64,000 nucleotides of DNA from contig JAZQIZ010000031.1 in assembly GCA_045541395.1 (NCBI GenBank), positions 3,519 through 67,518 of the forward strand, written 5' to 3'. The notes below the pieces were generated by a model, which did not search any database, had not been told where the DNA came from, and was given only the letters and a program-made list of their open reading frames with translations. Position numbers and translations under genes: made by a program. This document shows positions 22,610-60,750 of the stretch, piece after piece. How positions within the stretch are numbered: position 1 is the stretch's first letter; every line of letters begins with the position of its first letter. The stretch is from Eubacteriales bacterium. Its GTDB lineage: Bacteria; Bacillota; Clostridia; Oscillospirales; UMGS1783.

Positions 22610-22642
22610 TAAAAAAAGTTGCAAAGCATTTGCTTTGCAACT
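22610..22642 (-). terminator. rho-independent terminator between GH paralogs 2 and 1
   Basis: 11-bp stem agttgcaaagc (22617-22627) with gctttgcaact (22632-22642). A T7 run follows on the minus strand. Confidence 0.6.
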
Positions 22643-22654
22643 AATTTTTTAATA

Positions 22655-24820: not shown

Positions 24821-24917
24821 TTAGTTACCTCCTATAAATTTAGATTGTATTTTCTAAGCTCGCAGAAGGCTTAAAGCCTTCTGCGGCTTTTATAGATAAA
24901 ACTCTAAGAGGAAATAA

Positions 24918-30452: not shown

Positions 30453-30507
30453 AAAAAATTTCCTCCTTAAATAATTAAAATGAATAAAACGTCCATTTTG
30501 TATAAAT

Positions 30508-30536
30508 ATTATACGCAAACGATTGCGGAAAGTCAA
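30508..30536 (-). promoter_or_regulatory. consensus sigma-A promoter with a LacI-type operator in the spacer
   Basis: Minus strand reads TTGACT (30536-30531), a 17-nt spacer and TATAAT (30513-30508). The spacer holds the near-palindrome CGCAATCGTTTGCG (30514-30527). Confidence 0.65.
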
Positions 30537-30842: not shown

Positions 30843-31727
30843 TTACTTGGAAAGAACGGACTTCTTAACAACAACGATAGCAACAGCGGAGATTGCCATA
30901 AGAGCAACTACAACGCCGATAACCATATTGTCGGAAGTAGCGGGGTTCTTGGTAGCGCCGCCGATAACTTCACCCTTTTCGTCAACGATAACGGTGTTGC
31001 CTTCTTCGTCCTTTTCAACCTTACCGATTACATTACCTTCTTTGTCAACAACAACTTCGTTGCCTTCTTCGTCGGTAGTGATTTCGCCTTCGAGCTGTTC
31101 GCCTTCGCCGTCTTCACCTTCGGGAGTTTCGATGATAACGTCTTCAGTGTATTCATAGATAACGATATCGTCTACAGTAACTTCGGAAGCTGCGAGGGGG
31201 TTGCCGTTGGGGTGAAGGTAGATACGTACGGGATAGCCGTTGAGGATGGACTGATCGCCAGGAGCGAGATCTAATTCATGATCAACGGTAACGGTCATAG
31301 GAGCAGACCAAACGTCTTCCCATTCGCCGGTGGTTTCGAAGGTGTAAGCACCGTTCATACCGATGGAGCCATCCTTGAAGTCATACTGAACTTCTTTGCC
31401 TGCTTCACCCTTAGCTTTGAAGTTAAGGATGTAGGTCTTGCCGTATTCAACAGCATAAACGTTTTCTTCAGCGCCTTCTTCTTTGAGGTTACCGGTCCAC
31501 ATATAATATGCAGCATAGCCGGTATCACCAGCATTGTCAGCAGGTCTGATAATAATATTGTTATCATCAGTAGCAGTAGCGCCGTAAGCCCAAGCGCCCC
31601 ATTCAGCGCCGCCGAGGGAGCTGCAGTCCCAAGAGAATACTGCATCGCCGATGCCGGCAGAAACGATACCGGTGCAAAGGCCGATTACCATTACTAAAGC
31701 GAGTACTAATACAAGACTCTTCTTCAT
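30843..31727 (-). CDS. cell-surface protein with one CBM-like module, a stalk and a C-terminal sorting-type signal
   Basis: Start moved to the ATG at 31727 (AGGAGGA ribosome-binding site). Signal peptide MKKSLVLVLALVMVIGLCTGIVSAG. The module is homologous to those of the 28551-30452 gene (KAKGEAGKEVQYDFKDGSIGMNGAYTF). An E/G-rich stalk is followed by NPATSDN, a TM helix and KKSVLSK. Confidence 0.7.
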   Translation of the reverse strand: MKKSLVLVLALVMVIGLCTGIVSAGIGDAVFSWDCSSLGGAEWGAWAYGATATDDNNIIIRPADNAGDTGYAAYYMWTGNLKEEGAEENVYAVEYGKTYILNFKAKGEAGKEVQYDFKDGSIGMNGAYTFETTGEWEDVWSAPMTVTVDHELDLAPGDQSILNGYPVRIYLHPNGNPLAASEVTVDDIVIYEYTEDVIIETPEGEDGEGEQLEGEITTDEEGNEVVVDKEGNVIGKVEKDEEGNTVIVDEKGEVIGGATKNPATSDNMVIGVVVALMAISAVAIVVVKKSVLSK

Positions 31728-31780
31728 AATAAATTTCCTCCTAAATAATTTTAAAGACAAGTAGTCTATTTTGTATAATC

Positions 31781-31880: not shown

Positions 31881-32942
31881 TCACTTCTTTTTTGATTTAT
31901 ACTGATAGTATCTGTAATTACTTTTAAAGAGCAGCTGAGGGGGCACGACGATATTTTTCTCGGGCATTCTTTTCTCACCCAGCCAGAAATACATTGCCAT
32001 AAAGGCCTTTCTTGCCTGTTTATAAAGGTCCTGATAGATGGTGGCGTGAACAATATTGTTTTCAAGCATATAAGCAAGATCGTCAAACATATCGGTGGCA
32101 ACCACCTTTATTTTATCGGCAAGACCCATTTCCGTTAAAAGGCGGCAGATGGAGGTACTGTTGGCGGTGGTGATATAAATACCGTCAACCTCGCAGGTTT
32201 CAAGCACTTCTTTGGTTTCGAAATAGGCGGTATCGGCTTCGTCCAGGGTATCTACCATATGAGTCACTTTTACGCCGTATTTTTTAGAGTGATAGAAGAA
32301 TGCGCGGGCGGTTTTAAAGTGGATATCCGATTTCATATCGCCTGTAACAAGAAGGATATTTTTTCTCGCACCGTGGATCATAAAAGAAAGCATCTGCGCG
32401 GCGGCCTCGGCGGCGGCTTCGGCATTACCGGTACAGGCAAAAAGATGCCTTGCTCTTTCCAGGTAAGAGGTAAGGCCCGCAACGGGGATACCGTTATCCA
32501 TTGTGGCGGTTATTTTGTCCATAATAAGCTTTTCATCGTTAGCGGACATAACTATACCGTCACAGTTTTCTTCTATAAGCTCATCTATAAGACTGCAGTA
32601 TTTTTCTGCAGAGGAGGAGCCTGCTTTAATAACCTTAAGAGATAATACCACCTTATAGTCAAAAAGCCTGTCATGAGCTTCACGGATACCTCTTATAAGC
32701 TCACGGGAGGTATGCTCGATATCACCTGCCAGGATAACGCCTATTTTTATTGCCTTTTTTGTAAGGCGGGAAGCCATACGGTTGGGGGTATAGCCGTATT
32801 CCTTGGCGGTTTTTAGTATGTATGCGCGCTTTTCTTCGTTCATTTTATAATCTTCCTTAAAAGCGCGGCTTACCTCCGAAGCGGAGATATTCATTATTTT
32901 GGCCAATTTTGTAATGGAAATATTATCGTCCAACTTATTCAC
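31881..32942 (-). CDS. LacI-family transcriptional regulator
   Basis: N-terminal HTH (ISITKLAKIMNISASEVSRAF...AKEYGYTPNRMASRL) and a periplasmic-binding-protein-like sugar sensor domain. First gene of the minus-strand glycan locus. Confidence 0.8.
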   Translation of the reverse strand: MNKLDDNISITKLAKIMNISASEVSRAFKEDYKMNEEKRAYILKTAKEYGYTPNRMASRLTKKAIKIGVILAGDIEHTSRELIRGIREAHDRLFDYKVVLSLKVIKAGSSSAEKYCSLIDELIEENCDGIVMSANDEKLIMDKITATMDNGIPVAGLTSYLERARHLFACTGNAEAAAEAAAQMLSFMIHGARKNILLVTGDMKSDIHFKTARAFFYHSKKYGVKVTHMVDTLDEADTAYFETKEVLETCEVDGIYITTANSTSICRLLTEMGLADKIKVVATDMFDDLAYMLENNIVHATIYQDLYKQARKAFMAMYFWLGEKRMPEKNIVVPPQLLFKSNYRYYQYKSKKK

Positions 32943-47523: not shown

Positions 47524-48237
47524 ATGGCTACTGCTCATATAAATGCGAAGGATGGGGATTTTGCCAAAACTGTTTTAATGCCCGGAGACCCTTTGCGCTC
47601 ACAATTTATTGCGGAAAATTTTCTTAGCGACATTCGCCTTGTTAATAACGTGCGCGGCATACAAGGATATACAGGCCTTTATAAGGGCAAGGAAGTTTCT
47701 GTTATGGCAAGCGGAATGGGTATGCCCTCTATGGGGATATATTCTTACGAGCTTTTTAACTTCTTCTCGGTTGAAAATATAATAAGAGTAGGTTCTGCAG
47801 GTGCCTATTCACCAAAGGCTAAAATAAAAGATATTGTAATAGGAATGGGAGCCTGCACCGATTCCAACTACGCACATCAATACGGCTTACCGGGCGCATT
47901 TGCACCTATTGCGGATTTTGGAATTTTAGAAAAGTGCGTTGCTAAGGCAAAAAAACTGCAGCTTGATTTCCACGTTGGCAATCTTATTTCTTCGGACACT
48001 TTTTACAACGAGCCCGACAGCAGATATCTTGAACTCTGGGGCAAGATGGGTGTGCTTGCAGTGGAAATGGAGGCGGCGGCCCTTTATATGAACGCCGCAA
48101 GGGCAGGTAAAAAGGCTTTGGCTATTTGTACCGTATCCGATCAGCTTGTATTTGACGAGCATCTGACCGCCGGGGAGCGCCAGAGCTCCTTTAACGATAT
48201 GATAACACTTGCACTTGAAACGGCAGTTGAATTATGA
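47524..48237 (+). CDS. deoD: purine nucleoside phosphorylase, DeoD type
   Basis: ATAHINAKDGDFAKTVLMPGDPLR...VEMEAAALY motifs. Confidence 0.9.
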   Translation: MATAHINAKDGDFAKTVLMPGDPLRSQFIAENFLSDIRLVNNVRGIQGYTGLYKGKEVSVMASGMGMPSMGIYSYELFNFFSVENIIRVGSAGAYSPKAKIKDIVIGMGACTDSNYAHQYGLPGAFAPIADFGILEKCVAKAKKLQLDFHVGNLISSDTFYNEPDSRYLELWGKMGVLAVEMEAAALYMNAARAGKKALAICTVSDQLVFDEHLTAGERQSSFNDMITLALETAVEL

Positions 48238-49379
48238 AAAGAGTATTTTTAATTGTATTGGACAGCTTAGGCATAGGCGCTTTGCCCGATGCAAAGGAAT
48301 TTAATGATGAAGGGGCAAACACCTTAAGGAGCATTTCTCAAAGCCCCAATTTTAATATACCCAATTTAGAAAGCCTTGGCTTAGGCAGTATAGCTCAGGT
48401 GGATTACCTTAAGAAGCCTCAGCCGAAGGGGGCTTACGGCAGAATAAAGGAGCAATCGGGCGGCAAGGACACAACGGTTGGCCATTGGGAAATAGCAGGG
48501 CTTATATCTAAAAAGCCCTTGCCTACCTACCCCGAGGGCTTTCCCGAGGAAATAATCAGGGAATTTGAAAGGCGCACCAAAAGAAAGGTTATTTGCAATA
48601 AGCCTTATTCGGGCACGGCGGTTATTGCCGATTACGGCAGGGCGCATTTGGAAACGGGAGCGCTTATTGTTTACACCAGCGCCGACTCGGTTTTTCAGAT
48701 TGCGGCTCACGAAAGCATAGTACCCTTAGAGGAGCTTTATAACTACTGCAAAATTGCAAGAGAGATGCTTGACGTAGGAAGAGTAATAGCCCGCCCCTTT
48801 ACAGGAGAGCACCCTTTTACCCGCACCGCCAACCGCCACGATTTTTCCCTTGCACCCCACGGCAAGACTTTGCTTGACGCCCTGTATGAAAACAAAAAGG
48901 CGGTTATTTCCGTAGGCAAAATAAACGATATTTTCGCCTCAAGAGGAATAACCGAAAGTAACCCGACCCAAAGTAACGATGACGGAATGGCCAAAGCCCT
49001 TTTACTTCTTGAAAGGGATTTTGAGGGCCTTGCCTTTATAAATCTTGTGGACTTTGATTCCAAATACGGCCACCGCAACGATGCCGAAGGCTATGCCCTT
49101 GCCTTAAGCGAATTTGATAAATGGCTTCCCTCTTTTATGTATTCCTTAAAGGAGGAGGACCTGCTTATAATTACGGCGGACCACGGCTGTGACCCTGCAG
49201 ACATAAGCACCGACCATACAAGGGAGTATATTCCCCTTTTATGCTACGGGAAAAATATACGCTCTGTAAATCTTGGCACACTTTCTACGTTTGCGGATAT
49301 TGGGCAGACGGTGGCGGACTATTTGGGAGTTGAATTTAAAGGCGCAGGAGAGAGTTTTAAAGAAAGGATATTAAAATGA
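48234..49379 (+). CDS. deoB: phosphopentomutase
   Basis: MKRVFLIVLDSLGIGALPDA...GHWE...TADHGCDP. 4-nt overlap with deoD. Confidence 0.9.
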   Translation: MKRVFLIVLDSLGIGALPDAKEFNDEGANTLRSISQSPNFNIPNLESLGLGSIAQVDYLKKPQPKGAYGRIKEQSGGKDTTVGHWEIAGLISKKPLPTYPEGFPEEIIREFERRTKRKVICNKPYSGTAVIADYGRAHLETGALIVYTSADSVFQIAAHESIVPLEELYNYCKIAREMLDVGRVIARPFTGEHPFTRTANRHDFSLAPHGKTLLDALYENKKAVISVGKINDIFASRGITESNPTQSNDDGMAKALLLLERDFEGLAFINLVDFDSKYGHRNDAEGYALALSEFDKWLPSFMYSLKEEDLLIITADHGCDPADISTDHTREYIPLLCYGKNIRSVNLGTLSTFADIGQTVADYLGVEFKGAGESFKERILK

Positions 49380-49759
49380 ACGAGCTTATAAGTTTAGCCT
49401 TAAAGGCAAGAGAAAACGCCTACGTACCCTATTCGGGCTACAAGGTAGGCGCCGCACTTAAAGTAAAAAGCGGCAAGGTTTATACCGGCTGTAATATTGA
49501 AAACGCCTCCTTCTCCCCTACGGTTTGCGCTGAAAGGACCGCCATTTTCAAGGCAATAAGCGAAGGCGAAAGGGAATTTGAGGCCATAGCCGTTGTAGGC
49601 GGCAAGGATGAAATAACGGATTTTGCTCCCCCTTGCGGCGTTTGCAGGCAGGTAATGAGCGAATTTTGCTCTCCCGAATTTAAAATTATTCTTTATAACG
49701 GCAAGGAAGAAAGAATCTTTAAGCTGAAGGAAATTTTACCCCTTGCATTTTCCCTTTAA
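49376..49759 (+). CDS. cdd: cytidine deaminase
   Basis: CAERTAIF and PCGVCRQ zinc motifs. 4-nt overlap with deoB. Confidence 0.9.
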   Translation: MNELISLALKARENAYVPYSGYKVGAALKVKSGKVYTGCNIENASFSPTVCAERTAIFKAISEGEREFEAIAVVGGKDEITDFAPPCGVCRQVMSEFCSPEFKIILYNGKEERIFKLKEILPLAFSL

Positions 49760-49761
49760 AA

Positions 49762-49791
49762 AAGGTGTGCGTAAAAACGCACACCTTTTTT
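49762..49791. terminator. bidirectional terminator
   Basis: Stem aaggtgtgcg (49762-49771) with cgcacacctt (49778-49787), followed by a T-run. Confidence 0.6.
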
Positions 49792-52042
49792 ATATTAAGG
49801 GATGAAAATCCAGCACGGTCTCGGCTGCTATAAGCTCATCTTTACTGTTATACACATAGGCAACATCATCTATAATGCCCGTATAACCGTTAGAAAATAT
49901 TTCATGAGCAGCGTATTCACCTGTTGAGACGCCGGTTTCCAAATTATAAATACGGTAAAAAGCGGCTCCGCTTTCATTGATAAATTCTGTAGCAAACTTA
50001 TCATTTACAACAGATAGTTTACTGGGGATTTCATAAGCTTTTCCCGTTTCTACATCATACAGAATATCCTCTTCTTCACCGTTAAATCTAATTTTTCCGT
50101 TCGAAACGTAAGACGATACTTCGTAACCGCTGAAATTATTTATATCAACAATTACTTCTCCCTCTAAAGTGAATATTTTTCCGTCATCTTCAGGGCAGCC
50201 CGTATGGCATATATAGGGGCACTTATTTAATTCTGTACCGTTAACAGAAAATAAGACCATTTGCTCTTCATCCCACTTTGCTTTACAGGCGGGACATTTA
50301 ATTGATTTTTGGGTTTTTAAATCAATTATTTTGCCTTTGGATTTAATAACGTTTCCATACAACGTTATTTTATGCTTGAATTTTTCATCTTCGGGATCTC
50401 CGTCATATTTATAGGTAAATACTTTTTCGTTGGATTTATTTATAACTGCATTGTCGCAATTGCCCCTACCAAACGACCCCTCCTGCATAAAAAATATTTT
50501 ATGCTCATTAACTGTAGCATAGCCGTATTCATTAAAATGAGAAGCGTCATAGTATTCAAGGGGAATAACTACCTTGCCGGTAGTATCTATAAATCCGTAC
50601 ATCCTGCAGGTTTCGAAGTCGCTTAAACGCTCTCCCCAATTCCATACACGGGCATAGCCGTTATGAAATTCACCTAAACCATCAAAGGAATCGGTTTTTA
50701 CCTTTACCTTGCCGGTATTATCTATATAACAGCCATAGCCGTCACATTTTACCGACATAAGCCCCTCGGAAGGCATGCCTACCTCTAAACCTCCGCCTTT
50801 ATAACTGCCTACTACCTTAAGCTCGGTATCAAGCATATCCACACAAAAATACAGTTGGCCTGTTCCTGCGGTCTCGTAAACTACGGCAATATTACCGTCA
50901 AACTCATAAACTCTGTCTACCATACTGTAGGAAACTACCTTGGAGCCGTCAATATTAGTAATAACGGTATCGTTCAGATCCAGACGGACGGAAGCGCTTT
51001 TATCTTCCCACGGTTTATCTTTATACTGTTGCCCTTTATCATAATCCATTGGGTATTGGAGAACATAAAAATCTTTATTGTTTACGGTTAATTGATTTGC
51101 TCTATCGAATACCGACTCCACAACCACCTGCCCTTTCTCATTTACAAGGCCATAGCGTGGCTGCAAGTGCCAACCACTGCCGCGGGGATTTGTTTTACCT
51201 CCCGCAAAGACAAATAGCTCACCGTATTTTTTTGAGGGCTTAAGCTCTTTGTTGTAATAATCAAAATAACGGGACGCCGTAATAATTTCCTTTTTGGGAG
51301 CGGGCTCAAGCTCCTTTATTTCATCAACAGAGAAGCTGTAATTATATTCGTATATGATCTCCGGCTCGGGCTCAGGTTCGGGCTCGGAAGGGGCAACCGA
51401 CTGAGAGGGCTCAGGCTCGGGTTCGGGTTCGGGATCAGCAACTTCTTCAACTACTTCAAGGATAGAAATATCGCTGAGGTAAAAGCTTAAAGCGCCACTT
51501 TCGCCGCCGATAGTGTAAATACGAGCGGAGATACCGTTTATATAGTTAGGATCGGATTCAGGGATATCTTCCCAAGTTAATTCGGAAGTCATAACTTCAG
51601 AAGTAACGGTTTCCCAATCGTTAGTCCGGAAGGTATAGGAACCGCCCATGCCAACGGAGCCGTCTTTAAAGTCAAACAGAATGGACTTGCCGGCTTCGCC
51701 CTTAGCGCGGAAGGTCATAATATAACCCTTACCAAGTTCTACGTTGAATTCGCCGTCGGTCTTGCCGGTCCAGAACACCAGAGCACCGAAACCGTCGTTA
51801 GCGTCTACTTTAAGGAAATCACCTTCAACAGCAGTTGCGCCATTACCCCAAGAACCGTAAGGGCCGCCTTCTACAGTTTCAGCGCTGAAATCAAATACCT
51901 TTTTGAAAGTGATTTCTTCAGGTTCGGGCTCGGAAGGGGCAACCGACTGAGAGGGCTCAGGCGCAGGTTCGGGAGCGGGTTCTTTTTTTGCGCAGGAGGA
52001 CAGAAGCAAAATCAACGCGAGCATTAACGCTATTTTCTTCAT
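49790..52042 (-). CDS. lipoprotein: CBM-like module plus WG-repeat region with CxxC pairs
   Basis: Start moved to the ATG at 52042 (AAGGAGGT ribosome-binding site). Lipobox LLSSC. PE-rich linkers. One module is about 70% identical by eye to those of the 28551-30452 protein. WG-type repeats (YGLVNEKGQVVV, YGFIDTTGKVVIPLEYYDASHFNEYGYATV). Cys pairs CPACKAKW and CPYICHTGC. Confidence 0.7.
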   Translation of the reverse strand: MKKIALMLALILLLSSCAKKEPAPEPAPEPSQSVAPSEPEPEEITFKKVFDFSAETVEGGPYGSWGNGATAVEGDFLKVDANDGFGALVFWTGKTDGEFNVELGKGYIMTFRAKGEAGKSILFDFKDGSVGMGGSYTFRTNDWETVTSEVMTSELTWEDIPESDPNYINGISARIYTIGGESGALSFYLSDISILEVVEEVADPEPEPEPEPSQSVAPSEPEPEPEPEIIYEYNYSFSVDEIKELEPAPKKEIITASRYFDYYNKELKPSKKYGELFVFAGGKTNPRGSGWHLQPRYGLVNEKGQVVVESVFDRANQLTVNNKDFYVLQYPMDYDKGQQYKDKPWEDKSASVRLDLNDTVITNIDGSKVVSYSMVDRVYEFDGNIAVVYETAGTGQLYFCVDMLDTELKVVGSYKGGGLEVGMPSEGLMSVKCDGYGCYIDNTGKVKVKTDSFDGLGEFHNGYARVWNWGERLSDFETCRMYGFIDTTGKVVIPLEYYDASHFNEYGYATVNEHKIFFMQEGSFGRGNCDNAVINKSNEKVFTYKYDGDPEDEKFKHKITLYGNVIKSKGKIIDLKTQKSIKCPACKAKWDEEQMVLFSVNGTELNKCPYICHTGCPEDDGKIFTLEGEVIVDINNFSGYEVSSYVSNGKIRFNGEEEDILYDVETGKAYEIPSKLSVVNDKFATEFINESGAAFYRIYNLETGVSTGEYAAHEIFSNGYTGIIDDVAYVYNSKDELIAAETVLDFHPLI

Positions 52043-52052
52043 ATGAACCTCC

Positions 52053-53036
52053 TTATTCTTCGGCAGCAGCACGGGCATAGCCTTCGTTTACGGCAATCTG
52101 TTTGCCCTGCTCGGAGGCTATCCAGTTAAAAAGAATCCTTTCGGGCGAGTTCTTTTCGGCGGTCTTCTTAATTACCACGTAAAAGTTCTGCGAGAGCTCG
52201 TAGGTGCCGTCTTCTATGGCCTGATTAGAGGGCATTACTCCGTTGTAGGAAAGAATTTTGCTGGTCTCTAAAGTCCAGTCCTCCATTTGGGTAAGGTAAT
52301 AATAAACCGTGTAACCAATGGCTTCATCGGTTCCTTTGTAATTGGCTATAGCCTCCAGAAGGCCGCCCATGGAACCAACAATGTAATCATTGCCCATATA
52401 ATAGTGATCTCCAAAATTGAAGAACATATCAAATAAGGTCTGGGAACCGCTGTCATGGTTTCGCATATAAGGCACAATGGCTTCATCGTTACCGCCGAGA
52501 TCTGCCCAGTTTTTAGTTTCCCCACTAAATATGCCTATAACGTCTTCATAGTTTACGTTTTCAACAGGGTTATCCTTGCCGGTAATAAAAACAAGGGCAT
52601 CCTGAGCAATGGGAATGAATTCAAACTCATTGGCATACTCTGTTTTTACCTCCTCGGCAGGCTCGTAAGCTAAAATAATATCGAAGGTGCCGTCTCTTAA
52701 GCGTTCGTAGTTTGAGGTCGTAGAGCCGTCGAAGGTTAAAAGCTTGGTGGCTTCTTCTCTTGTAAGGCCAAGAGCATTTGCGGTAAGGGCCTCACCTAAG
52801 GGCAGCGCCGCCAATGAGCCGCCCATTTTAGGGTAATTATCCATAGTGAACTCAAACTCTTCATCAACTGTTACCGTTACAGGTTCGGGAGGCAAAGAGG
52901 GCTCTTCCGAAGAGGATGGGGCCGTAACGGAGGGCTTGGGTTCGGGGGTCACGGAAGGCGAGGGTTCTTCCTTTTTGCAGGCGCAAATAGAAAATAAAAG
53001 TATAAGGGAAAGTATAAATGCTAAGAATCTTTTCAT
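52053..53036 (-). CDS. lipoprotein, PstS-like (PBP type 2) substrate-binding protein, paralog A
   Basis: Signal peptide and Cys (LFSICAC). GGSLAALPLGEAL, DALVFITGKDNPV, NWADLGG and RNHDSGSQTLF fit the PstS/PBP_like_2 pattern. There is no pstCAB nearby. Confidence 0.6.
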   Translation of the reverse strand: MKRFLAFILSLILLFSICACKKEEPSPSVTPEPKPSVTAPSSSEEPSLPPEPVTVTVDEEFEFTMDNYPKMGGSLAALPLGEALTANALGLTREEATKLLTFDGSTTSNYERLRDGTFDIILAYEPAEEVKTEYANEFEFIPIAQDALVFITGKDNPVENVNYEDVIGIFSGETKNWADLGGNDEAIVPYMRNHDSGSQTLFDMFFNFGDHYYMGNDYIVGSMGGLLEAIANYKGTDEAIGYTVYYYLTQMEDWTLETSKILSYNGVMPSNQAIEDGTYELSQNFYVVIKKTAEKNSPERILFNWIASEQGKQIAVNEGYARAAAEE

Positions 53037-53057
53037 ATTGGTTTCTCCTGTGAGTAA

Positions 53058-54026
53058 TTATTTGGGAGTTACATATCCTTCGTTCTCGGCAATCTGTTTG
53101 CCTTGCTCAGAGGATATCCAGTTATATAGCACCCTTTCGGGGGAGTTTTTCTCGGCGTCCTTACGGATGACCACGTAAAACTGGTTGGTAAGCTTGTATT
53201 TACCGTTTTCTATGGTTTCAAAGGACGGCATTACACCATCTACCGCAAGAAGCTTGCTGGTTTCAAGGGTTGATGCCTCCATTTTGGTAAGGTAATAATG
53301 GACAGTGTATCCTATGGCCTCATCAGTGCCCTTGTAATCGGCAATGGCCTCAAGAAGCCCCGCCATAGAGCCTACAACGTATTCGTTTTTTATATGCTCT
53401 GTATCATTGAGATCAAAGAATATCTCAAAGAGGGTATGGGAGCCGCTTTCGGGATTTCTGATATATGGAACTACAGCTTTATCTTCTCCCTTGACCTGGC
53501 TCCAGTTAGTTATTTTTCCGTTGAATATATCGCTTATCTCTTCGGAGCTCAATCCATCTACACTGTTGTTTTTGCCGGTAATGAAAACCAGCGCATCCAC
53601 ACCTATTGGGGTAAACTCAAACTCATCGGTATAAGTTACCTCTTCGGCAGGCTCGTAAGCTAAAATAATATCAAAGGTTCCGTCTCTTAAGCGTTCGTAA
53701 TTGGAGGTGGTAGAGCCGTCGAAGGTTAAAAGTTTTGTGGCTTCCTCCCTTGTTAAATCAAGGACGTTGGCAGTAAGCGCCTCACCTAAGGGCAGGGCCG
53801 CTAAGGAGCCTCCCATTTTAGGGTAATTATCCATAGTGAACTCAAACTTTTCATCAACTGTTCCCGTTACAGATTCGGGAGGCAAAGAGGGCTCTTCCGA
53901 AGAGGATGGGGCCGTAACGGAGGGCTTGGGTTCGGGGGTAACAGAAGGCGAGGGTTCTTCCTTTTTGCAGGCGCAAATAGAAAGGACAAGTATTACTGCA
54001 AGTAAAAATATAAGCAACTTTTTCAT
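53058..54026 (-). CDS. lipoprotein, PstS-like substrate-binding protein, paralog B
   Basis: Same architecture as paralog A. The N-terminal ~130 aa are nearly identical to paralog A and the C-terminal half is diverged. Confidence 0.6.
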   Translation of the reverse strand: MKKLLIFLLAVILVLSICACKKEEPSPSVTPEPKPSVTAPSSSEEPSLPPESVTGTVDEKFEFTMDNYPKMGGSLAALPLGEALTANVLDLTREEATKLLTFDGSTTSNYERLRDGTFDIILAYEPAEEVTYTDEFEFTPIGVDALVFITGKNNSVDGLSSEEISDIFNGKITNWSQVKGEDKAVVPYIRNPESGSHTLFEIFFDLNDTEHIKNEYVVGSMAGLLEAIADYKGTDEAIGYTVHYYLTKMEASTLETSKLLAVDGVMPSFETIENGKYKLTNQFYVVIRKDAEKNSPERVLYNWISSEQGKQIAENEGYVTPK

Positions 54027-54037
54027 AAATATCCTCC

Positions 54038-55252
54038 TTAATCCATATGAATTCCTATGCTCATTATTTCATTCAGGTCTGTATCCTTAACGTAGCACAT
54101 ACCGTTTTTGCAGTATGATATGCCGTTGCCGAAGGCTATAAGGTATTCACATTTCGTTATGCTGCCGCAGGAAATGTCGTATATAAAAGAGATATCTTCG
54201 TTACTTTCGTAATCGTAGCCGAACATACGAAATTCGGTATCACCTACCCGCATATAGGTTGAGACGCCGTCAAGCACATGCATTTTTTCAGTTTCCCGTT
54301 CATAAATAAACCCTTTTATCTTGGTTGGGTCATACTCCTCGGATTCCATATACATACCCATAACGTAATCTTCGTCCACACCGTACATCGCGCTTGTATA
54401 GGAAGCAGGAACGGTACATAAAAGCTCACCATCTGCTGATATCATGGAGGTGACACCCTCGCAATCATTATGAACGTAGCCAATGAAAGAGCTTTCGCCT
54501 TTTTTCCACCGTAAATCATTTGAAGGGTAATCCACAGAAACGGTTTTCTTGCAGCCGGGGCAATATATCTCATAAGGGCCTTCTTCCTTGCTATCCTCGT
54601 AGCTTAAGGACATATCCTTCTGCAGGTCCTCATTGTAATATTCGGAAACTCTCTTATTCCCCTCTTTAGCAGGTGTAAGAATTCTTATTACATTTCCCTT
54701 AGCTTCAATATAACCGTAATACTCCAGCACATTACGGCCGTCATCTCTTATAAGTAGAAAAGGAGAATCGTAGAGATCAAGGTATTTATCTTCAATATAC
54801 GCCTCATTCAGGCCTGTAGGGCGCACAAGATAATAAACATAGTTTTCTGTACTGAGAGCTCCACAGAATTCATAAACGGGATCGCAGATGATCTCACCGT
54901 CTAAGGTGCAAAAGCCTACCCGATCTTCCTTGTGACAGTAATTACCCTCCATGCCGCTTGCAAAACGACCGATATAGGGCATAACCGTACCATAATCATC
55001 ACTCGGAATAAACTCGCCTACAAATTCACCGTAATAGCGGGAATAGTTTTCCTGCCGCGCTTCCAGCTTTTTTATTTCATTCACGGAAAATACTATATTT
55101 CCGTTTTGGTCTTCGGTTACGTTCTGGGAAGTGGACGTTACCTGTTCAGGGTCCTGGGAAGTGGATGGGGCCTGTTCAGGCTTATTCCCAACACAGGCGC
55201 AAAGGGAAAGCAATAGCAATACCGCAAGAAAAAGTACTAAAATTTTTTTCAT
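54038..55252 (-). CDS. lipoprotein related to the C-terminal region of the 49790-52042 protein
   Basis: Lipobox-like LSLCAC. FSVNEIKKLE...SRYYGEF parallels FSVDEIKELE...SRYFDYY of the 750-aa protein. CPGCKKT Cys pair. Confidence 0.6.
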   Translation of the reverse strand: MKKILVLFLAVLLLLSLCACVGNKPEQAPSTSQDPEQVTSTSQNVTEDQNGNIVFSVNEIKKLEARQENYSRYYGEFVGEFIPSDDYGTVMPYIGRFASGMEGNYCHKEDRVGFCTLDGEIICDPVYEFCGALSTENYVYYLVRPTGLNEAYIEDKYLDLYDSPFLLIRDDGRNVLEYYGYIEAKGNVIRILTPAKEGNKRVSEYYNEDLQKDMSLSYEDSKEEGPYEIYCPGCKKTVSVDYPSNDLRWKKGESSFIGYVHNDCEGVTSMISADGELLCTVPASYTSAMYGVDEDYVMGMYMESEEYDPTKIKGFIYERETEKMHVLDGVSTYMRVGDTEFRMFGYDYESNEDISFIYDISCGSITKCEYLIAFGNGISYCKNGMCYVKDTDLNEIMSIGIHMD

Positions 55253-55305: not shown

Positions 55306-55334
55306 ATTTTATATGAAAGAAAATTTGCTGTCAA
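55306..55334 (-). promoter_or_regulatory. putative promoter of the four-lipoprotein operon (TTGACA-17-TAAAAT)
   Basis: Minus strand reads TTGACA (55334-55329), a 17-nt spacer and TAAAAT (55311-55306). Confidence 0.45.
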
Positions 55335-55383
55335 CAAAAAAAATTTTATATTTTTACTTTTTTTCTTTAAATATGACAAAGCA

Positions 55384-55416
55384 GTTACAAAACGGTTACA
55401 AAACGGTTACAAATTC
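55384..55416. repeat. three tandem 11-bp direct repeats (GTTACAAAACG x2, GTTACAAATTC)
   Basis: Read directly: 55384-55394, 55395-55405 and 55406-55416. They lie 50-82 nt upstream of the putative -35. Confidence 0.9.
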
Positions 55417-55446: not shown

Positions 55447-55482
55447 TAAAAAAATTACCCTGCCGGTAACAGCGGCAGGGTA
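55447..55482 (-). terminator. rho-independent terminator of the KDG-type operon
   Basis: 10-bp stem taccctgccg (55456-55465) with cggcagggta (55473-55482). A T7 run follows on the minus strand. Confidence 0.6.
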
Positions 55483-55510
55483 AAGCCTTGGGTTTAAAAG
55501 AGGAAATAAA

Positions 55511-56503
55511 TTATTTTACGTTTTGTTTGTATTCGGGATTAAGAAGGGTTTTTAATTCCTTGCCATCTAAGAAATCTACAGCGTTGCGAGCGGCGAACAT
55601 ACCTGCATACATAACCGCATCGTTGGTATTGGCGCCGATATGGGGCTCTAAGATACAGTTTTTAATGCCTAAGAAGGGGCAATCGGGGGAAACGGGCTCT
55701 ACTCTCAGAACGTCAAGGCCTGCGCCTGCGATAGTACCGTTCTTTAAAGCTTCAGCCAGATCCTCTTCAACAATAAGAGCGCCGCGGCCTGTATTAATAA
55801 GGAAAGCGGTATCTTTCATTTTGGAAAGGAACTCTTTATCTACCATATCCCTTGTTTCATCGGTACAGGGGCAATGAAGAGAGATAACGTCGGACTCTTT
55901 AATGAGGGTCTCCATATCAACCGACTTAACGTTATACTGCTTGCCTATTTCTTCGTTGAAGTAAGGGTCGTAAGCAATAACGTGGCAGTCAAAGCCCATA
56001 AGCATTTTTGCCAAAGTCTGAGGAATACCGCCGAAGCCTATAAGGCCAACGGTTTTGTTATAAAGCTGAATACCGTTGCGGGATTCCAGGAAACGGCTCC
56101 AGTCACAATTATGAACCTCTTCGTTACCGGGAACGATGTTTCTCATAAGGCAGAGCATTAAGGTCAAAGCGCATTCTGCAACAGGGCGGTTAAAGGAACC
56201 TGCGGCATTGCATATAGCCACACCGTTTGCATTTGCGGCAGGGTAATCCATTTCGTCGGTGCCAACGCCGAAGCGGGAAAGGAGCTTCAGCTCGGGAGCG
56301 AGGTAATTGATAGTTTCAGCAGGGAGCTTTTCGCCTGCGGAGATAATTACGTTATAACCCTTTAAGCCTTCTTTGAAATCGGCGGTGTTGCGGGTCGCGA
56401 AATCGAGTAATACTGCCTCGTGGCCTGAGTTATTTATAAATTCACACATTGCTTCTCTGATGAAGCGGGGCTGCTGTTTGCCTATTATAGCTACTTTACC
56501 CAT
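55511..56503 (-). CDS. D-isomer-specific 2-hydroxyacid dehydrogenase
   Basis: GLIGFGGIPQTLA (GxGxxG) and INTGRGALIVEEDLAEALKNGTIAGAGLDV. Confidence 0.8.
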   Translation of the reverse strand: MGKVAIIGKQQPRFIREAMCEFINNSGHEAVLLDFATRNTADFKEGLKGYNVIISAGEKLPAETINYLAPELKLLSRFGVGTDEMDYPAANANGVAICNAAGSFNRPVAECALTLMLCLMRNIVPGNEEVHNCDWSRFLESRNGIQLYNKTVGLIGFGGIPQTLAKMLMGFDCHVIAYDPYFNEEIGKQYNVKSVDMETLIKESDVISLHCPCTDETRDMVDKEFLSKMKDTAFLINTGRGALIVEEDLAEALKNGTIAGAGLDVLRVEPVSPDCPFLGIKNCILEPHIGANTNDAVMYAGMFAARNAVDFLDGKELKTLLNPEYKQNVK

Positions 56504-56516
56504 TGTTTATTCCTCC

Positions 56517-57203
56517 TTAGGGGATAATAGGAAGGTCTTTTTTAGCTTCCTGAACCTTTTCAATGAAAGCGGCAACCTGCTTGGTGATCCAGCCGAGACC
56601 TTCTTTTTCGATCATATCAAAATTCATAAAGGTACGGGCACCGCTTACTGCGCAGGCACCTGCCTTAATGAAATCGGCGCAGTTATCAAGGTTGATACCG
56701 CCGGAGGGAATGAGGTTTACGTCGGGGAACACCATTTTAAGGTTGGTCATATACTTAGCGCCGCCAACGCCGCCGGGGAATATTTTAACCATAGTAGCGC
56801 CTGCGCGCATTGCGGTGAATACTTCGGTTGCGGTAAATGCGCCGGAGAAGGTAGGAACGTTGTAACGGTTTGCAACGTCTAAAACGTCCTCAACGATGCA
56901 GGGGTTAACAATAATGCTGCCGCCGTGTAAAATAACTTCTCTTGCAGTTGTTGCATCCAGAACGGTGCCTGCGGCAACCAGCATCTCCTTGCCGAAATGG
57001 GAGGAGATAGCTTCAATGGCGTCTAAAGCATAAGGGGTCGTCATAGTAACCTCAACGGCTCTTGCACCGCCGTCATACATAGCCTGAGCGTATTTGATCC
57101 AATCTGCCTTTTCATGGAGCTTGATGCAGGGCAGAACGCCTGTTTCCTTAATGCGGCGGACGGTATATTCTCTTAAGGTTTCATCACTTCTGTTCATTTT
57201 CAT
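56517..57203 (-). CDS. eda: 2-dehydro-3-deoxyphosphogluconate (KDPG) aldolase family
   Basis: GGARAVEVTMTTP, AAGTVL, VKIFPG and IPSGGINLDN motifs. Confidence 0.75.
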   Translation of the reverse strand: MKMNRSDETLREYTVRRIKETGVLPCIKLHEKADWIKYAQAMYDGGARAVEVTMTTPYALDAIEAISSHFGKEMLVAAGTVLDATTAREVILHGGSIIVNPCIVEDVLDVANRYNVPTFSGAFTATEVFTAMRAGATMVKIFPGGVGGAKYMTNLKMVFPDVNLIPSGGINLDNCADFIKAGACAVSGARTFMNFDMIEKEGLGWITKQVAAFIEKVQEAKKDLPIIP

Positions 57204-57207
57204 ATCC

Positions 57208-57657
57208 TCACTTAATTTTTATTTTAACAATGAGCTTATTAATAAAGCAGGGCTCATCATTTACGGCAACACAGGGCTGATGGGAATCATCAGGCAGGGT
57301 TATCATAAAGTAATTTACGGGCATGGTTAAAACGTCACCCTTGCCTTCAAGAAGGTAAGCGTCGGCCTTTTCATCATAGCTTACTTCCTTAAGGGTGGCT
57401 TTATGGGCATAGCCAATACCCTCAAGGCCTTCGGCAACAAAATGGATATCCACGTAATCTCTGTGAGCTTCAAAGGGGCAATCCTTTAAAAGCTTGGTGT
57501 TGCAGGGACGAACGCGAACTAAAATATCTTCATTAATAACAATATCTTCTTCCTTGGGGTTTTCATCCTTATACTGAGCAAGAAAATCCAGTGCGGTTTT
57601 ATAATCTTCGCCTAAGCCGTAATAAAGATGACGGTTATCTATATGGTCTATAATCAT
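57208..57657 (-). CDS. YhcH/YjgK/YiaL (DUF386) family protein
   Basis: FEAHRDYVDIHFVAEGLEGIGY motif. Start moved to the ATG at 57657 (AGGAGA ribosome-binding site). Confidence 0.7.
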   Translation of the reverse strand: MIIDHIDNRHLYYGLGEDYKTALDFLAQYKDENPKEEDIVINEDILVRVRPCNTKLLKDCPFEAHRDYVDIHFVAEGLEGIGYAHKATLKEVSYDEKADAYLLEGKGDVLTMPVNYFMITLPDDSHQPCVAVNDEPCFINKLIVKIKIK

Positions 57658-57670
57658 TTTAATATCTCCT

Positions 57671-58690
57671 TTATCTCTGAACTCTGCCTGAGCCGCCGCC
57701 TGCAAGCATTGCATTTACTTCGTCTAAGGTAACCAGGTTATAGTCGCCCATAATTGTCTGCTTCAAAGCGGAAGCGGCAACCGCAAATTCACCTGTACGC
57801 TCCAAGGAATAGCCGGAAAGGAGCCCGAAGATCATTGCTGCGCTGAAGGAAGCGCCACCGCCGCCTCTGTCTACAAGATGGATGGTATAGCGGGTGGTCT
57901 CATAAAATTCCTCGCCGTTATAAAGCAGAGCTGCCCAGGTATTTTCCGAAGCATTGGAGCCTTCTCGCAAAGTAGAGGCAATAAACTTAAAGCCAAAGCG
58001 CTCCTTAAGCTCCTTAAAGGCCTGTTCGTATTCTTCGCGGCTATGGTTAAACATACCGTGGCCTACCTTGGCAAACTGAAGGCCCAGCATTTTATCCGCA
58101 TCCTCAAGGCCGCCGATGCAAACGTCAACGTACTCCATTAAAGGAACCATTACCTCTTTGGCCTTTTCTACTGTCCATAATTTAGCTCTGTAGTTAAGGT
58201 CACAGGAAACAGTAACACCGTGTTTCTTTGCACATTTTACAGCTTCCATTGTAAACTCAGCGGCCGCATCGGAAATAGCAGGGGTAATACCTGCAAAATG
58301 GAACCAATCGGCACCTTCAAAGGCAGAGTCAAAATCAAAATCGGAAGCTTTGGCGGTAGATATTGCGGAATTCTTTCTATCATAAATTACAACGGAGGGG
58401 CGTACAGCCGCGCCGTTTTCATAAAAGTTAAGGCCCAGTCTTTCACCGCCGCGGGCAATATAGCTTGTATCTACACCCTGCATTCTTAATTTCTGAATAC
58501 AGATATCGCCTAACTGGTTTTCGGGCAGCTTGGTAATATAAATACTGTTTGCGCCGAAACGGGCAAGTGAGGTTGCAACAATGCTTTCATCGCCGCCGTA
58601 ATAGGCTTCAAAGCTGTCTACCTGCTCAAAGCGCTTGTTACCTGCGGGCATAAAGCGGATCATCATTTCCCCTAAGGTTACTACTTTCAT
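57671..58690 (-). CDS. kdgK: 2-dehydro-3-deoxygluconokinase (PfkB family)
   Basis: MKVVTLGEMMIRFMP N-terminus. PfkB fold with a C-terminal VDRGGGGASFSAA nucleotide site. Confidence 0.75.
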   Translation of the reverse strand: MKVVTLGEMMIRFMPAGNKRFEQVDSFEAYYGGDESIVATSLARFGANSIYITKLPENQLGDICIQKLRMQGVDTSYIARGGERLGLNFYENGAAVRPSVVIYDRKNSAISTAKASDFDFDSAFEGADWFHFAGITPAISDAAAEFTMEAVKCAKKHGVTVSCDLNYRAKLWTVEKAKEVMVPLMEYVDVCIGGLEDADKMLGLQFAKVGHGMFNHSREEYEQAFKELKERFGFKFIASTLREGSNASENTWAALLYNGEEFYETTRYTIHLVDRGGGGASFSAAMIFGLLSGYSLERTGEFAVAASALKQTIMGDYNLVTLDEVNAMLAGGGSGRVQR

Positions 58691-58724
58691 AAGCGTTCTC
58701 CTTTTATTTTAATTAAAATTAATA

Positions 58725-59540
58725 TCAGGTCTTGCCGTAGCCTTCTTTAAAGTAAATACGGCCTGCTTTAACCCAACGGTCCTCTATTTCGATCATTTTT
58801 TTGGTATCCTTTATGTGCAGATACATATTTGCCGCCTTTTCCACTACCTGAGCGCAAACCTTTGCTTCTGCAAGGGAGGAACCAACACAAACGGGGCCGT
58901 GATTTCTTATTAAAACTGCGTTGGCTTCGCCGATAGAATCGGTTACCACCTCGCCTAATTCAACGTGCTTTTCGGAAGGCACGAAGCGGTAAGAAAGAGG
59001 AATTCCGCCGCCCAAAAGCTGACACATTTCTTCCGACATAGGAGGAATGCCACCTTCAATACAGCAGCAGGCCATTGCATAAGGGGAATGGCTGTGCACT
59101 ATTGCGTTTACATCTGCACGGCGGTTCATAATGCCTCTGTGAAGCTCCCTTTCGCTTGTAGGAAGCCTGAAACCGTCTACAATCTTACCGTCCGGCGCCA
59201 TTACTACAAGATCTTCCGGCTTCATTACGTGATAGCCTACCTTGGAGGGGGTAATTAAAATATTGCCGTCATTAAGACGAATACTTACGTTGCCCCAGGT
59301 ACCTATTGTAAGGCCCATTTGCTCAAGCCAAAGGCAGGTATCTATTACCGACTGCCTTGTTTCTTTAGAATCCTCAGGAAGGGCCTTGGCATCCTTTGCG
59401 GGCTCTTCAAATTCTATTTTAATTCCATGGTCTGACGCCCAGTCCTTTGCCGAAGGGGTAAGGATAGTACCCTTAGGCACCACTATTCTGGGGGCAGACG
59501 AAAAATGCTTTATATCTTCTAAGGTTATAAGTTCCGCCAT
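58725..59540 (-). CDS. class II aldolase/adducin-family protein with a ~55-aa N-terminal extension
   Basis: Core motifs GNVSIR...ITPS and HSHSPYA. The extra N-terminus is ELITLEDIKHF...VVPKGTILTPSAKDWASDHGIKIEF. Confidence 0.7.
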   Translation of the reverse strand: MAELITLEDIKHFSSAPRIVVPKGTILTPSAKDWASDHGIKIEFEEPAKDAKALPEDSKETRQSVIDTCLWLEQMGLTIGTWGNVSIRLNDGNILITPSKVGYHVMKPEDLVVMAPDGKIVDGFRLPTSERELHRGIMNRRADVNAIVHSHSPYAMACCCIEGGIPPMSEEMCQLLGGGIPLSYRFVPSEKHVELGEVVTDSIGEANAVLIRNHGPVCVGSSLAEAKVCAQVVEKAANMYLHIKDTKKMIEIEDRWVKAGRIYFKEGYGKT

Positions 59541-59563
59541 TTTTTATCTCCTTTTTTTATTTT

Positions 59564-59581
59564 TGCGTAACCGATTACGCA
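59564..59581. promoter_or_regulatory. LacI-type operator TGCGTAACCGATTACGCA
   Basis: 18-bp near-palindrome (7-bp arms TGCGTAA/TTACGCA). It lies between a minus-strand TTGACA-17-TAGAAT promoter (59640-59612) and the aldolase ribosome-binding site. The LacI gene is divergent. Confidence 0.6.
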
Positions 59582-59709
59582 AAGCGTACAATTACAATAT
59601 AATACTTTGTAATTCTAACACAACGGGGCTCTTATGTCAATACGGCTATTGACTAAATACGGGAGGATAAAGTATAATAAAATCACAGTATTTTACGGAG
59701 TTAAGCAAT

Positions 59710-60750
59710 ATGACAAAAACGGGTAAGGTTACAATTTATGATATAGCCGAAAAATCGGGAGTCTCGGTGGCCACGGTTAACCGGGCATTGAATGACCGCG
59801 ACCGAATAAGCGAAAGCACCAGAAAGAAGGTGCTTTTGGCGGCGCAGGAATTAGGCTATAAGGCAAATAGAGCGGCGCAGTCTCTAAGGCGCAACCCTAT
59901 TCATATAGGGGTACTGCTTTGCTGCCCGGTAAGCAACTGCCTGAATGAAATTAAAAGAGGCATTGTAAGCGGATTTGAGGCCCTTGCCCAGTACAACGTA
60001 TTTTCGGATATACGCTGTATTGTTGGCTGTAATGCTTCGGATAAATATGAAGAAGTAAGCGGCATAATTTCCGAGTTTGAAAGCAAGGGTTACGGCGGAA
60101 TGATACTTTTCCTTTCGGGTGATACCGCCCTTTTTGAAAAGCAGATAACTGCCGCCAGCACCAAAATACCCGTTGCCTCTATTGCCAATGCCACCGCTTC
60201 GGGGCAGATATCCGTTACAGCAGACGGGTACTGTGCAGGCAGGCTTGCGGCGGAGCTTTTAAACCTTGCGGCAAAAAAGAGGCGCACTGCGGTTATTGCA
60301 GGCAACCTAAGAACACCTATTCACGCCTCCAACATTCAGGGCTTTCTTTCCTTTGGGAAGGAGCATAATTTTGCCCTTACGGATATTTACGAGCACGATG
60401 ACGAGCCTAATAAATTTGAAAGGACCGTAAAGGAGGTATTCAATAAAGAGTACGACGGAATATATATTACCTCCTCGGTTGAAAAGACCACCGCCGATAT
60501 TATAAAAGCAGAAGCTAAGGGCAAGGATATTTCTATAGTATGTACCGACCTTTACCCTGAGACCCGCGCACTTTTAAAGGAAGAGATAATAAGCGCCACT
60601 ATTTTTCAGGATCAGTTCAAGCAAGGGAAAACCGTTGTTAAGCGGCTTTATGAATATATTTGCGATAAGACCGGCGAAGGCAACCTGCTGTTGCTTCCGG
60701 GCCTTGTTTTCTCTTCGGATATGGAGAAATACCCGCAGGATGAGCTGTAA
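59710..60750 (+). CDS. LacI-family transcriptional regulator
   Basis: VTIYDIAEKSGVSVATVNRALN...ELGYKANRAAQSL HTH and a sugar-binding domain. TTGACT-18-TATAAT at 59649-59678. Confidence 0.85.
   Translation: MTKTGKVTIYDIAEKSGVSVATVNRALNDRDRISESTRKKVLLAAQELGYKANRAAQSLRRNPIHIGVLLCCPVSNCLNEIKRGIVSGFEALAQYNVFSDIRCIVGCNASDKYEEVSGIISEFESKGYGGMILFLSGDTALFEKQITAASTKIPVASIANATASGQISVTADGYCAGRLAAELLNLAAKKRRTAVIAGNLRTPIHASNIQGFLSFGKEHNFALTDIYEHDDEPNKFERTVKEVFNKEYDGIYITSSVEKTTADIIKAEAKGKDISIVCTDLYPETRALLKEEIISATIFQDQFKQGKTVVKRLYEYICDKTGEGNLLLLPGLVFSSDMEKYPQDEL

Follow-up and report, generated by a model that had tools for sequence, protein, structure and literature searches.

PstS-like binding lipoproteins paired with WG-repeat-type partner lipoproteins in gut and rumen Clostridia, apart from transporter genes

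What does a protein of the phosphate-binding type do where no transporter genes accompany it? The question is raised by four consecutive open reading frames (ORFs) on the minus strand of a 64-kb stretch of DNA from a Eubacteriales bacterium (assembly GCA_045541395.1, contig JAZQIZ010000031.1; the whole stretch is referred to as the window), which we call A, B, C and D in transcription order. The middle two, B and C, are binding proteins of the PstS type, and the outer two, A and D, are β-repeat proteins related to one another. An earlier note, made from the sequence alone, had described the four genes as an operon of lipoproteins that fits no described system and had proposed a surface complex. 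From the analysis below, B and C with A and D are best classed as examples of a widespread, conserved and uncharacterized pair, in which a binder of the PstS superfamily has been redeployed outside a transporter together with a WG-type partner.

Binder and partner genes in the window, in related loci and in single chains

The four genes are as follows.

54038–55252, minus strand: gene A, 404-residue lipoprotein of the partner family, all-β, without a Pfam match
53058–54026, minus strand: gene B, 322-residue PstS-fold lipoprotein
52053–53036, minus strand: gene C, 327-residue paralogue of B
49790–52042, minus strand: gene D, 750-residue lipoprotein, starting at the ATG after AAGGAGG

The A–B, B–C and C–D gaps measure 11, 21 and 10 nt, and each gene is preceded by a Shine-Dalgarno sequence; for D, an alternative, longer ORF of 762 residues from 52078 runs into C. 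A signal peptide and lipobox stand at the N-terminus of all four proteins (A, LCAC; B and C, ICAC; D, LSSC), as called by sequence pattern with [LVI][ASTVI][GAS]C as the criterion; the strict consensus is matched by D only, whereas A, B and C have Cys as their second lipobox residue and qualify once the pattern is relaxed. The lipobox is followed in each protein by a low-complexity linker rich in P, E, S and T, and Cys20 is nearly invariant in the binder (B-like) and partner (A/D-like) families alike. No permease, ATPase or phoU gene adjoins the operon in the flanks examined within the window. On spacing, lipid anchoring and the absence of permease, ATPase, pstCAB and phoU genes nearby, the earlier description therefore stands.

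Homologues of B number in the hundreds and come exclusively from uncultured Clostridia. When one genome per species was scanned with the B-family alignment, 80 loci were obtained, all from metagenome-assembled genomes of gut or rumen origin labeled Oscillospiraceae, Acutalibacteraceae, Feifaniaceae, Ruminococcaceae, 'Eubacteriales' or 'Clostridia'. In all, 84 loci were analyzed with up to 8 kb of flanking DNA on each side, and their ORFs were searched with A, D and four other partner proteins. Of the 76 loci with sufficient DNA upstream, approximately 73 have one, two or three A/D-like lipoprotein genes immediately before the B-like gene and in the same orientation; L053 and L068 are the clear exceptions. 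Neither pstCAB nor phoU was found in any of the 84 loci within these flanks, and no locus contains a second PstS-like ORF. All-against-all clustering of the same loci revealed no further family common across them: the next commonest, a Liv-type ATP-binding cassette (ABC) system at 10 loci, reflects the synteny of one clade, and an apparent 46-locus family of 183-residue ORFs (L001–L084) was rejected as an ORF-calling artefact, an antisense ORF inside the binder gene.

The three closest relatives (L085, L086 and L087) carry the cassette beside cdd and deoB, as in the window, with compositions of A-B-D′ in L085, A′-A-B-B′-D′ in L086, and A, a split A and B, followed by the contig end, in L087. 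Because composition differs in this way among close relatives while the adjacency of partner and binder persists, the conserved unit is the partner-binder pair with variable copy number and not a fixed four-gene operon, and the co-conservation of four genes expected from the earlier note is not borne out. We define the pair by a partner N-terminal module (N-module; ..RFY.E...FIPSDDYG..PF.G...YGFCT.DG.IV.D) encoded next to, or fused with, a binder that contains G-S-[T/L]-[A/S]..P, T106, E125 and R...[S/A]GSQ (residue numbers of B); in the window, A adjoins B and C adjoins D in this sense.

The same two components also occur in single chains. When 1.84 billion cluster representatives were searched exhaustively with the B-family profile in HMMER, 12,279 matches were obtained at E<1e-3 and 1,833 at E<1e-30. 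In 100 of the 150 best representatives, the chain runs on for 150 residues or more past the C-terminal end of the binder domain, and 53 of these extensions match the hidden Markov model (HMM) of the partner family (42 at E<1e-10), a number that rises to 66 after iteration. Extensions are recovered with A and D by BLASTP with E values down to 2e-9 and with the partner HMM down to 5e-46, and Pfam alone places PBP_like_2 and WG_beta_rep in one chain in P0154, P0167 and P0182. The order is always binder then partner in the 52 fusions with a detected N-module (52/52), which starts no more than about 15 residues past the binder C-terminus. All fused relatives come from uncultured organisms, under public names such as 'substrate-binding domain-containing protein' and 'ABC-type phosphate transport system substrate-binding protein'. 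Because such 'Rosetta stone' fusions accompany gene adjacency, it is quite probable from sequence that binder and partner act together physically, and to that extent the surface complex proposed earlier has gained backing.

Two binder domains are present in 7 of the 150 representatives. One relative, P0150 (712 residues), has two in tandem followed by a C-terminal sorting domain of the type IX secretion system (T9SS), with no WG partner in the chain; the sorting domain, from which the taxon is deduced, implies a surface or secreted version in Bacteroidota, a predicted location that fits poorly with an inner-membrane ABC importer. Separately, the 150 representatives have 103 extensions on either side of the binder domain, and 37 of them (e.g., P0191, P0227, P0258 and P0262) have no match to the partner HMM. 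Most of these chains continue for approximately 500–700 residues after the binder domain without any Pfam family, and the unmatched extensions may be a second kind of fused partner.

Fold and ligand cleft of the binders

Both binders match PBP_like_2 (PF12849; 78.5 bits for B and 79.9 bits for C, cutoff 27) and remain under the 206.6-bit cutoff of TIGR02136, the NCBIfam model of PstS, with 100.1 bits for B over model positions 105–293 and 93.7 bits for C over positions 80–293. The AlphaFold2 model of B (mean predicted local distance difference test, pLDDT, of 83) has the two-lobe PstS fold, and its best Foldseek matches are 4N13, 4Q8R, 4GD5, 9L8J and 1TWY, with E values of 3e-17 to 3e-15 and identities of 20–23% to PstS structures. 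The assignment of the middle two proteins to the PstS/PBP2 type in the earlier note was thus correct.

In Escherichia coli PstS, phosphate is held by T10, F11, S38, D56, R135, S139, G140 and T141, and Asp56 picks protonated phosphate over sulfate. The corresponding ligands in Clostridium perfringens PBP-1 are S11, T12, S13, S41, S59, R125, S129, G130 and T131 (PMC5381212). The motifs of B to be compared with these are GGS74-L75-A76, GS105-T106-T107, AY124-E125-P and R190-NPE-S194-G195-S196. Residues R190, S194, G195 and S196 align in phmmer with R125, S129, G130 and T131 of PBP-1 and form a C-lobe loop that is invariant in the B-family alignment. Across a wider family of 278 domains, S74 is kept in 260, T106 in 263, E125 in 242, R190 in 273, G195 in 267 and S196 in 273, such that conservation reaches at least 96% at each of R190, G195 and S196; at position 194, Ser is found in 233 domains (84%) and Ala in 43.

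The N-lobe of B and C fails to align to canonical PstS both in profile-to-PDB comparison and by hhalign against E. coli PstS (in a sequence that agrees with the known residue numbers T10, S38, D56, R135 and S139–T141), and the N-lobe mapping is therefore motif-based. A register was obtained through the fused relatives, which retain a canonical-looking DGST[A/S]..PL motif and are aligned by TIGR02136 over its full length. In this register S74, L75 and A76 correspond to S11, T12 and S13 of PBP-1, T106 is likely the equivalent of S41/S38, and the position of D56/S59 is taken by Tyr124, followed by Glu125. By this motif comparison the universal PstS threonine would be replaced with leucine in B and C, with loss of its hydroxyl. 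Leu75 is confined to stand-alone binders (8/8 representatives); among the 111 long representatives (>550 residues), 101 have Thr at position 75, 9 have a gap there and 1 has Gly. Whether the phosphate ligands of PstS are conserved, as the earlier note had asked, has a divided answer: the C-lobe site is intact, and the key N-lobe threonine appears, from motif comparison, to be a leucine.

Set beside PstS as represented by TIGR02136/PF12849, C. perfringens PBP-1 (4Q8R/4GD5) and Borrelia burgdorferi BB0215 (4N13), B shares the two-lobe fold, and both binders share the R-x-x-x-S-G-S/T loop and the lipoprotein anchoring of Gram-positive PstS. They differ in low identity, in an N-lobe beyond HMM alignment, in the sub-cutoff TIGR02136 score, in the motif-based substitutions Thr12→Leu, Ser13→Ala and Asp56/Ser59→Tyr plus an invariant Glu, and in being never beside pstCAB/phoU but paired or fused with a β-repeat domain. 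From these comparisons, the cleft would keep most of the oxyanion site, with an acidic residue beside the PstS Asp56 position, and we read the Thr→Leu exchange as a probable alteration of specificity, for example toward a phosphonate or phosphoester substituent. That the ligand is an oxyanion or phosphoryl-type group is, in our estimate, an even call.

The binder alignment has a mean column identity of 60% with 72 invariant columns, and the cleft is under strong purifying selection. B and C themselves are 74% identical in amino acid sequence, and their DNA (52053–54026) is a mosaic in which nt 61–240, encoding the linker and N-terminal region, are approximately 95% identical and most of the rest approximately 55–80%, a pattern suggestive of gene conversion or of a partial duplication in recent times.

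The partner proteins

The partner family is recognized by the lipobox and linker, the N-module (consensus vF.l.eLPDIG...RFY.E...FIPSDDYG..PF.G...YGFCT.DG.IV.D), WG-like repeats in mid-chain and a C-terminal ...YD..fN.I motif. Its features in A and D are listed here.

54872–55090, minus strand: N-module of A, defining the partner family, FSVNEIKKLE...YSRYY...IPSDDYG..PYIG...GFCTLDGEIICDPVY
54461–54562, minus strand: CPGC...HNDC motif of A (CPGC, residues 231–234; HNDC, residues 261–264)
51452–51916, minus strand: module of D resembling a carbohydrate-binding module (CBM-like), residues 43–197, with copies in ORFs 28551–30536 and 30843–31760
51107–51334, minus strand: partner-family N-module of D, FSVDEIKELE...SRYF...KPSKKYG...GLVNEKGQVVVESVF
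50453–50785, minus strand: WG_beta_rep region of D, with approximate outer limits read from the sequence
50195–50296, minus strand: Cys cluster of D, CPAC...CPYICHTGC (CPAC, residues 583–586; CPYICHTGC, residues 608–616)

A and D are homologous over a region of approximately 97 residues (28% identity, E = 1e-8), and the shared region and the Cys pairs pointed out in the earlier note, CPGC in A and CPAC and CPYICHTGC in D, are both present. Its claim of WG repeats in the two proteins holds for D, which matches WG_beta_rep (PF14903) with 68.6 bits in three stretches (cutoff 25.6; the best, residues 482–512, at 50507–50599), and not for A, for which no Pfam match was found at E up to 0.1, WG_beta_rep included; A is tied to the WG-bearing homologues solely through the shared N-module. 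The order of elements in D is CBM-like module, PE-rich linker, partner N-module, WG repeats, Cys cluster and C-terminal β repeats. The CPGC...HNDC motif of A is a candidate metal-binding knuckle, and CPxC...HxxC motifs of the kind seen in A and D are found in only 8 of 89 partner proteins.

The AlphaFold2 model of A (pLDDT 79) is all-β, although residues 54–76 within the N-module have a pLDDT of less than 50, and its Foldseek matches are weak ones to the β-propellers BtuG, BamB and EUBREC_1955 (template modeling, TM, scores of 0.27–0.41). The partner alignment has a mean column identity of 20% and four invariant columns (F55, Y87, G88 and G172), and a word-indexed search returned 8 homologous proteins with A alone and 28 with the partner alignment. 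The two families thus appear to evolve asymmetrically, the binder slowly and the partner fast. An enzymatic partner such as a β-propeller phytase was considered and judged unlikely, because only four columns are invariant and none is of a catalytic type.

Relative to WG_beta_rep proteins at large, a family whose function is blank, D is alike in its three Pfam-significant repeats, and PF14903 is matched by many partner-family members and fusions. A and most partners, however, lie below detection, and the partner family has its own N-module, its own C-terminal motif and a fixed tie to a PstS-like binder.

The N-terminal addition of D is 62–65% identical to two tandem modules of ORF 28551–30536 and 39% identical to ORF 30843–31760. 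The earlier note had called it the CBM-like module of the glycan locus; the sharing with that locus is confirmed, and the CBM label stays below threshold, since D has no match to CBM_4_9 (PF02018, cutoff 25.9 bits) and the paralogue in ORF 28551–30536 reaches 22.8 bits. The neighboring ORF 27080–28366 does match CBM_4_9, with 39.1 bits. In close relatives, the D-like proteins (529 and 579 residues) lack module 43–197, which would have been acquired recently by D and is common to the glycan-utilization locus. In that locus, both ORFs 28551–30536 and 30843–31760 (minus strand) consist of this repeated module of approximately 155 residues, and they are flanked by three paralogous genes of glycoside hydrolase family 36 (GH36; 20411–27083), the CBM_4_9 protein and a LacI-type regulator (31881–32942).

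Possible roles, transcription signals and neighboring genes

Taken as a whole, the locus would encode, each in duplicate, both parts of a conserved surface module without transporter genes. The first component (B, C) would be a Venus-flytrap lipoprotein derived from PstS, and the second (A, D) a fast-evolving, all-β, WG-repeat-related lipoprotein with a family-specific N-module. The two would associate outside the membrane at its surface, the partner N-module being the probable point of contact, with both proteins on long flexible linkers. Since there are two binders and two partners, with A adjacent to B and C to D, two heteromeric pairs, A+B and C+D, are suggested; the C-D gene order mirrors the binder-then-partner order of the fusions. 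A small oxyanion group resembling phosphate would be clamped by the flytrap, and a substituted phosph(on)ate or phosphoester would be favored over free orthophosphate because one hydroxyl ligand appears to be replaced by Leu in the clade of the window. The variable partner would be the environment-facing part, including in D the acquired glycan-locus module. In this reading the physical complex, the nature of the ligand and a hand-off to an uptake or sensing system elsewhere are the inferred parts. A transporter-independent surface complex holding a phosphate-like group is our favored but tentative reading of the sequences, somewhat short of an even chance, and a nutritional hand-off to an uptake system is at best doubtful.

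Several points weigh against a surface complex of this kind. The mapping of S74/L75/A76, T106 and Y124/E125 comes from motif comparison with the fused relatives only, and the Thr→Leu exchange could instead signify lost anion binding. A pstCAB system elsewhere in the genome may use B or C, the model of the partner resembles β-propellers weakly (TM 0.27–0.41), and neither the rumen nor the gut is an obviously phosphate-limited environment, which weakens a scavenging role.

Comparison with described systems offers partial parallels. Gram-positive Isd/Shr surface proteins relay a ligand to a binding protein, IsdE or HtsA. LpqB (for MtrAB) and YycH/YycI (for WalRK) are lipid- or membrane-anchored, β-rich extracytoplasmic accessory proteins; the partner is of the same β-rich anchored type and the operon has OmpR-family-type repeats upstream, but no homology was detected and the conserved pair contains no kinase. 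In Bacteroides BtuG-BtuB (8BLW, 8PTF), a lipid-anchored β-propeller-like protein likewise works with a surface binding/transport protein, and BtuG is the top structural match of A, although the match is weak (TM 0.27–0.31), sequence homology is lacking and no transporter is linked to the pair. Binding proteins that work outside transport are represented by the sensing systems LuxP-LuxQ, TorT-TorS and Pseudomonas aeruginosa PstS-CtpL (PMC8050422), whereas the conserved pair encodes no membrane sensor and the partner has a lipid anchor only. Apart from PBP_like_2, WG_beta_rep and the sub-cutoff TIGR02136, no named family emerged from searches of NCBIfam, PADLOC and Pfam, and the literature searched on the WG repeat, PF14903, PF12849 and PstS with T9SS contains nothing on binder-partner pairing (the YARHG paper describes other clostridial PBP_like_2 fusions only), in agreement with the earlier view that the combination lies outside described systems.

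The phosphate-transporter annotation probably misleads in the case of a large family that is found in Clostridia of gut and rumen and also outside them, because no permease adjoins the binder, a β-repeat partner is adjacent or fused, and the Thr ligand appears to be lost in the clade of the window. We also put forward, as a possibility that we regard as doubtful, that PstS-like and WG-type domains form an unrecognized, widespread class of transporter-independent extracytoplasmic receptor, occurring as pairs or fusions in at least approximately 1,800 clusters at 50% identity, in which a phosphate-binding fold with a remodeled pocket would capture or sense a substituted phosph(on)ate or similar anion at the surface of gut anaerobes as the obligate partner of a rapidly diversifying β-propeller-like protein. 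Knowing the ligand and the role of the partner would correct inferences on phosphorus cycling drawn from metagenomes, would supply a first defined partner and context for the WG-repeat domain, which is widespread yet blank as to function, and could reveal a new route of capturing or sensing anionic compounds at the surface of Gram-positive anaerobes. The pair is small, self-contained and experimentally tractable, as two soluble ectodomains.

Other explanations bear in part on the signals that frame the operon, which are listed here.

55455–55483, minus strand: terminator-like hairpin of the upstream 2-hydroxyacid dehydrogenase gene, with an 11-bp stem (7 GC pairs) and a T tract
55373–55412, minus strand: four 11-bp direct repeats upstream of the promoter, TTGTAAC-CGTT, TTGTAAC-CGTT, TTGTAAC-TGCT and TTGTCAT
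55306–55334, minus strand: sigma-70-type promoter, TTGACA-17-TAAAAT, with 11/12 consensus matches
49767–49784, minus strand: terminator-like hairpin with a T tract after D, common to the convergent cdd gene

The first hairpin isolates the operon from the gene upstream. Given the tight gaps, the promoter upstream of A and the flanking terminator hairpins, A-B-C-D looks like one transcription unit, as predicted from the DNA. The TTGACA element and a T-rich tract upstream of it are kept in L085, L086 and L087. The repeat array, a candidate regulator site, is the sole such site in the 64 kb (0.29 expected by chance). Its repeats fit TGTWAH-N5-TGTWAH, which we take to be the consensus of WalR among the OmpR-family response regulators, and lie near the reverse complement of TT(A/T/C)ACA, presumably the PhoP box of Bacillus subtilis. 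Similar arrays occur in L086 and L087, and arrays in L023, L032 and L037 have the opposite orientation and stand beside the −35 element. Of 68 upstream regions, 4 contain perfect repeat dimers, where shuffled sequences lead one to expect 0.24, and 11 contain dimers when one mismatch is allowed, where 5.1 ± 2.1 are expected. The array was rejected as a general feature of the pair family, being absent from most loci and only weakly enriched overall.

This array is one argument for a role in envelope homeostasis under WalR-like control, in which, by analogy with LpqB-MtrB and YycH/YycI-WalK, the binder would recognize phosphates of the wall- or lipoteichoic-acid type and the partner would bind peptidoglycan or modulate a sensor kinase. 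The fit of the four TGTAAC-N5 repeats upstream of A to the assumed WalR consensus, the arrays at five further loci, the lipid anchoring of both proteins on long linkers and the presence, just downstream in one clade, of genes for a Germane lipoprotein, a CpsB-like phosphatase and a two-component system of the OmpR family are all in keeping with it. We consider it unlikely, given that perfect dimers are so rare, that the nearby two-component system exceeds no WalRK or PhoPR cutoff, and that this synteny is limited to one clade.

To the same low degree of likelihood we hold that the pair is an adhesin or substrate tether, in which the partner and the CBM-like module would attach to plant or host polymers and the PstS-like domain would serve as a structural or anion-recognizing adhesive subunit. 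PstS-1 of Mycobacterium tuberculosis and PstS of P. aeruginosa have been reported as adhesive, and the fast divergence of the partner, the variable copy number, the module that D shares with the GH36/CBM_4_9 locus and the T9SS surface-sorting tail of P0150 would all suit such a role. The binder cleft residues, however, are conserved very strongly, a pattern seen more typically where a small ligand is fixed; the CBM-like module is restricted to the D of this genome when compared with close relatives, and no adhesin domains were detected.

B and C could also be ordinary PstS paralogues that feed orthophosphate to a PstCAB elsewhere, with A and D as unrelated neighbors. The PstS fold, the intact Arg/Ser/Gly/Ser loop of the C-lobe, the PhoP/WalR-type repeats upstream and the name 'phosphate ABC transporter substrate-binding protein' under which relatives stand in public records speak for this explanation, which we nevertheless regard as quite improbable: B and C score under half of the TIGR02136 cutoff, the universal Thr appears to be Leu in both, no pst gene is found in the 84 loci, pairing with A/D-like genes is near-obligate with frequent covalent fusions, and one relative, P0150, is T9SS-sorted. 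Very unlikely is a peptide latch or intramolecular chaperone, in which the binder cleft would hold the N-terminal segment of the partner instead of a small molecule, as the low pLDDT of residues 54–76 in the monomer model of A and the short distance between binder and N-module in fusions might suggest, given that the anion-binding Arg/Ser/Gly/Ser loop and the Glu are retained and that PstS-type clefts are small.

Some neighboring genes are recorded here in their own right. At L004 (9019–13917) and six similar loci of one clade, the cassette is followed downstream by genes for a CpsB-like phosphatase of the polymerase and histidinol phosphatase (PHP) type, a Germane-domain lipoprotein and an S9 peptidase, and loci of this type also carry an OmpR-family response regulator and histidine kinase after the cassette. 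The latter were tried as WalRK or PhoPR and rejected; below the NCBIfam cutoffs, they are a generic OmpR-family pair whose best matches are VanR/VanS-like. In the window, genes for a deoD-like purine nucleoside phosphorylase, deoB (phosphopentomutase) and cdd (47524–49759, plus strand) converge on the end of the operon; L085 and L086 retain the cdd-deoB synteny and have another PNP_UDP_1 gene upstream of the cassette. Upstream of the operon, 55511–60750 looks like a sugar-acid catabolic cluster of the 2-keto-3-deoxygluconate (KDG) type, with genes for a 2-hydroxyacid dehydrogenase, a 2-keto-3-deoxy-6-phosphogluconate (KDPG) aldolase, DUF386/YhcH, a PfkB kinase, a class II aldolase and a LacI-type regulator. 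Close relatives carry DnaE, PFK and PNP_UDP_1 genes where the window has this cluster.

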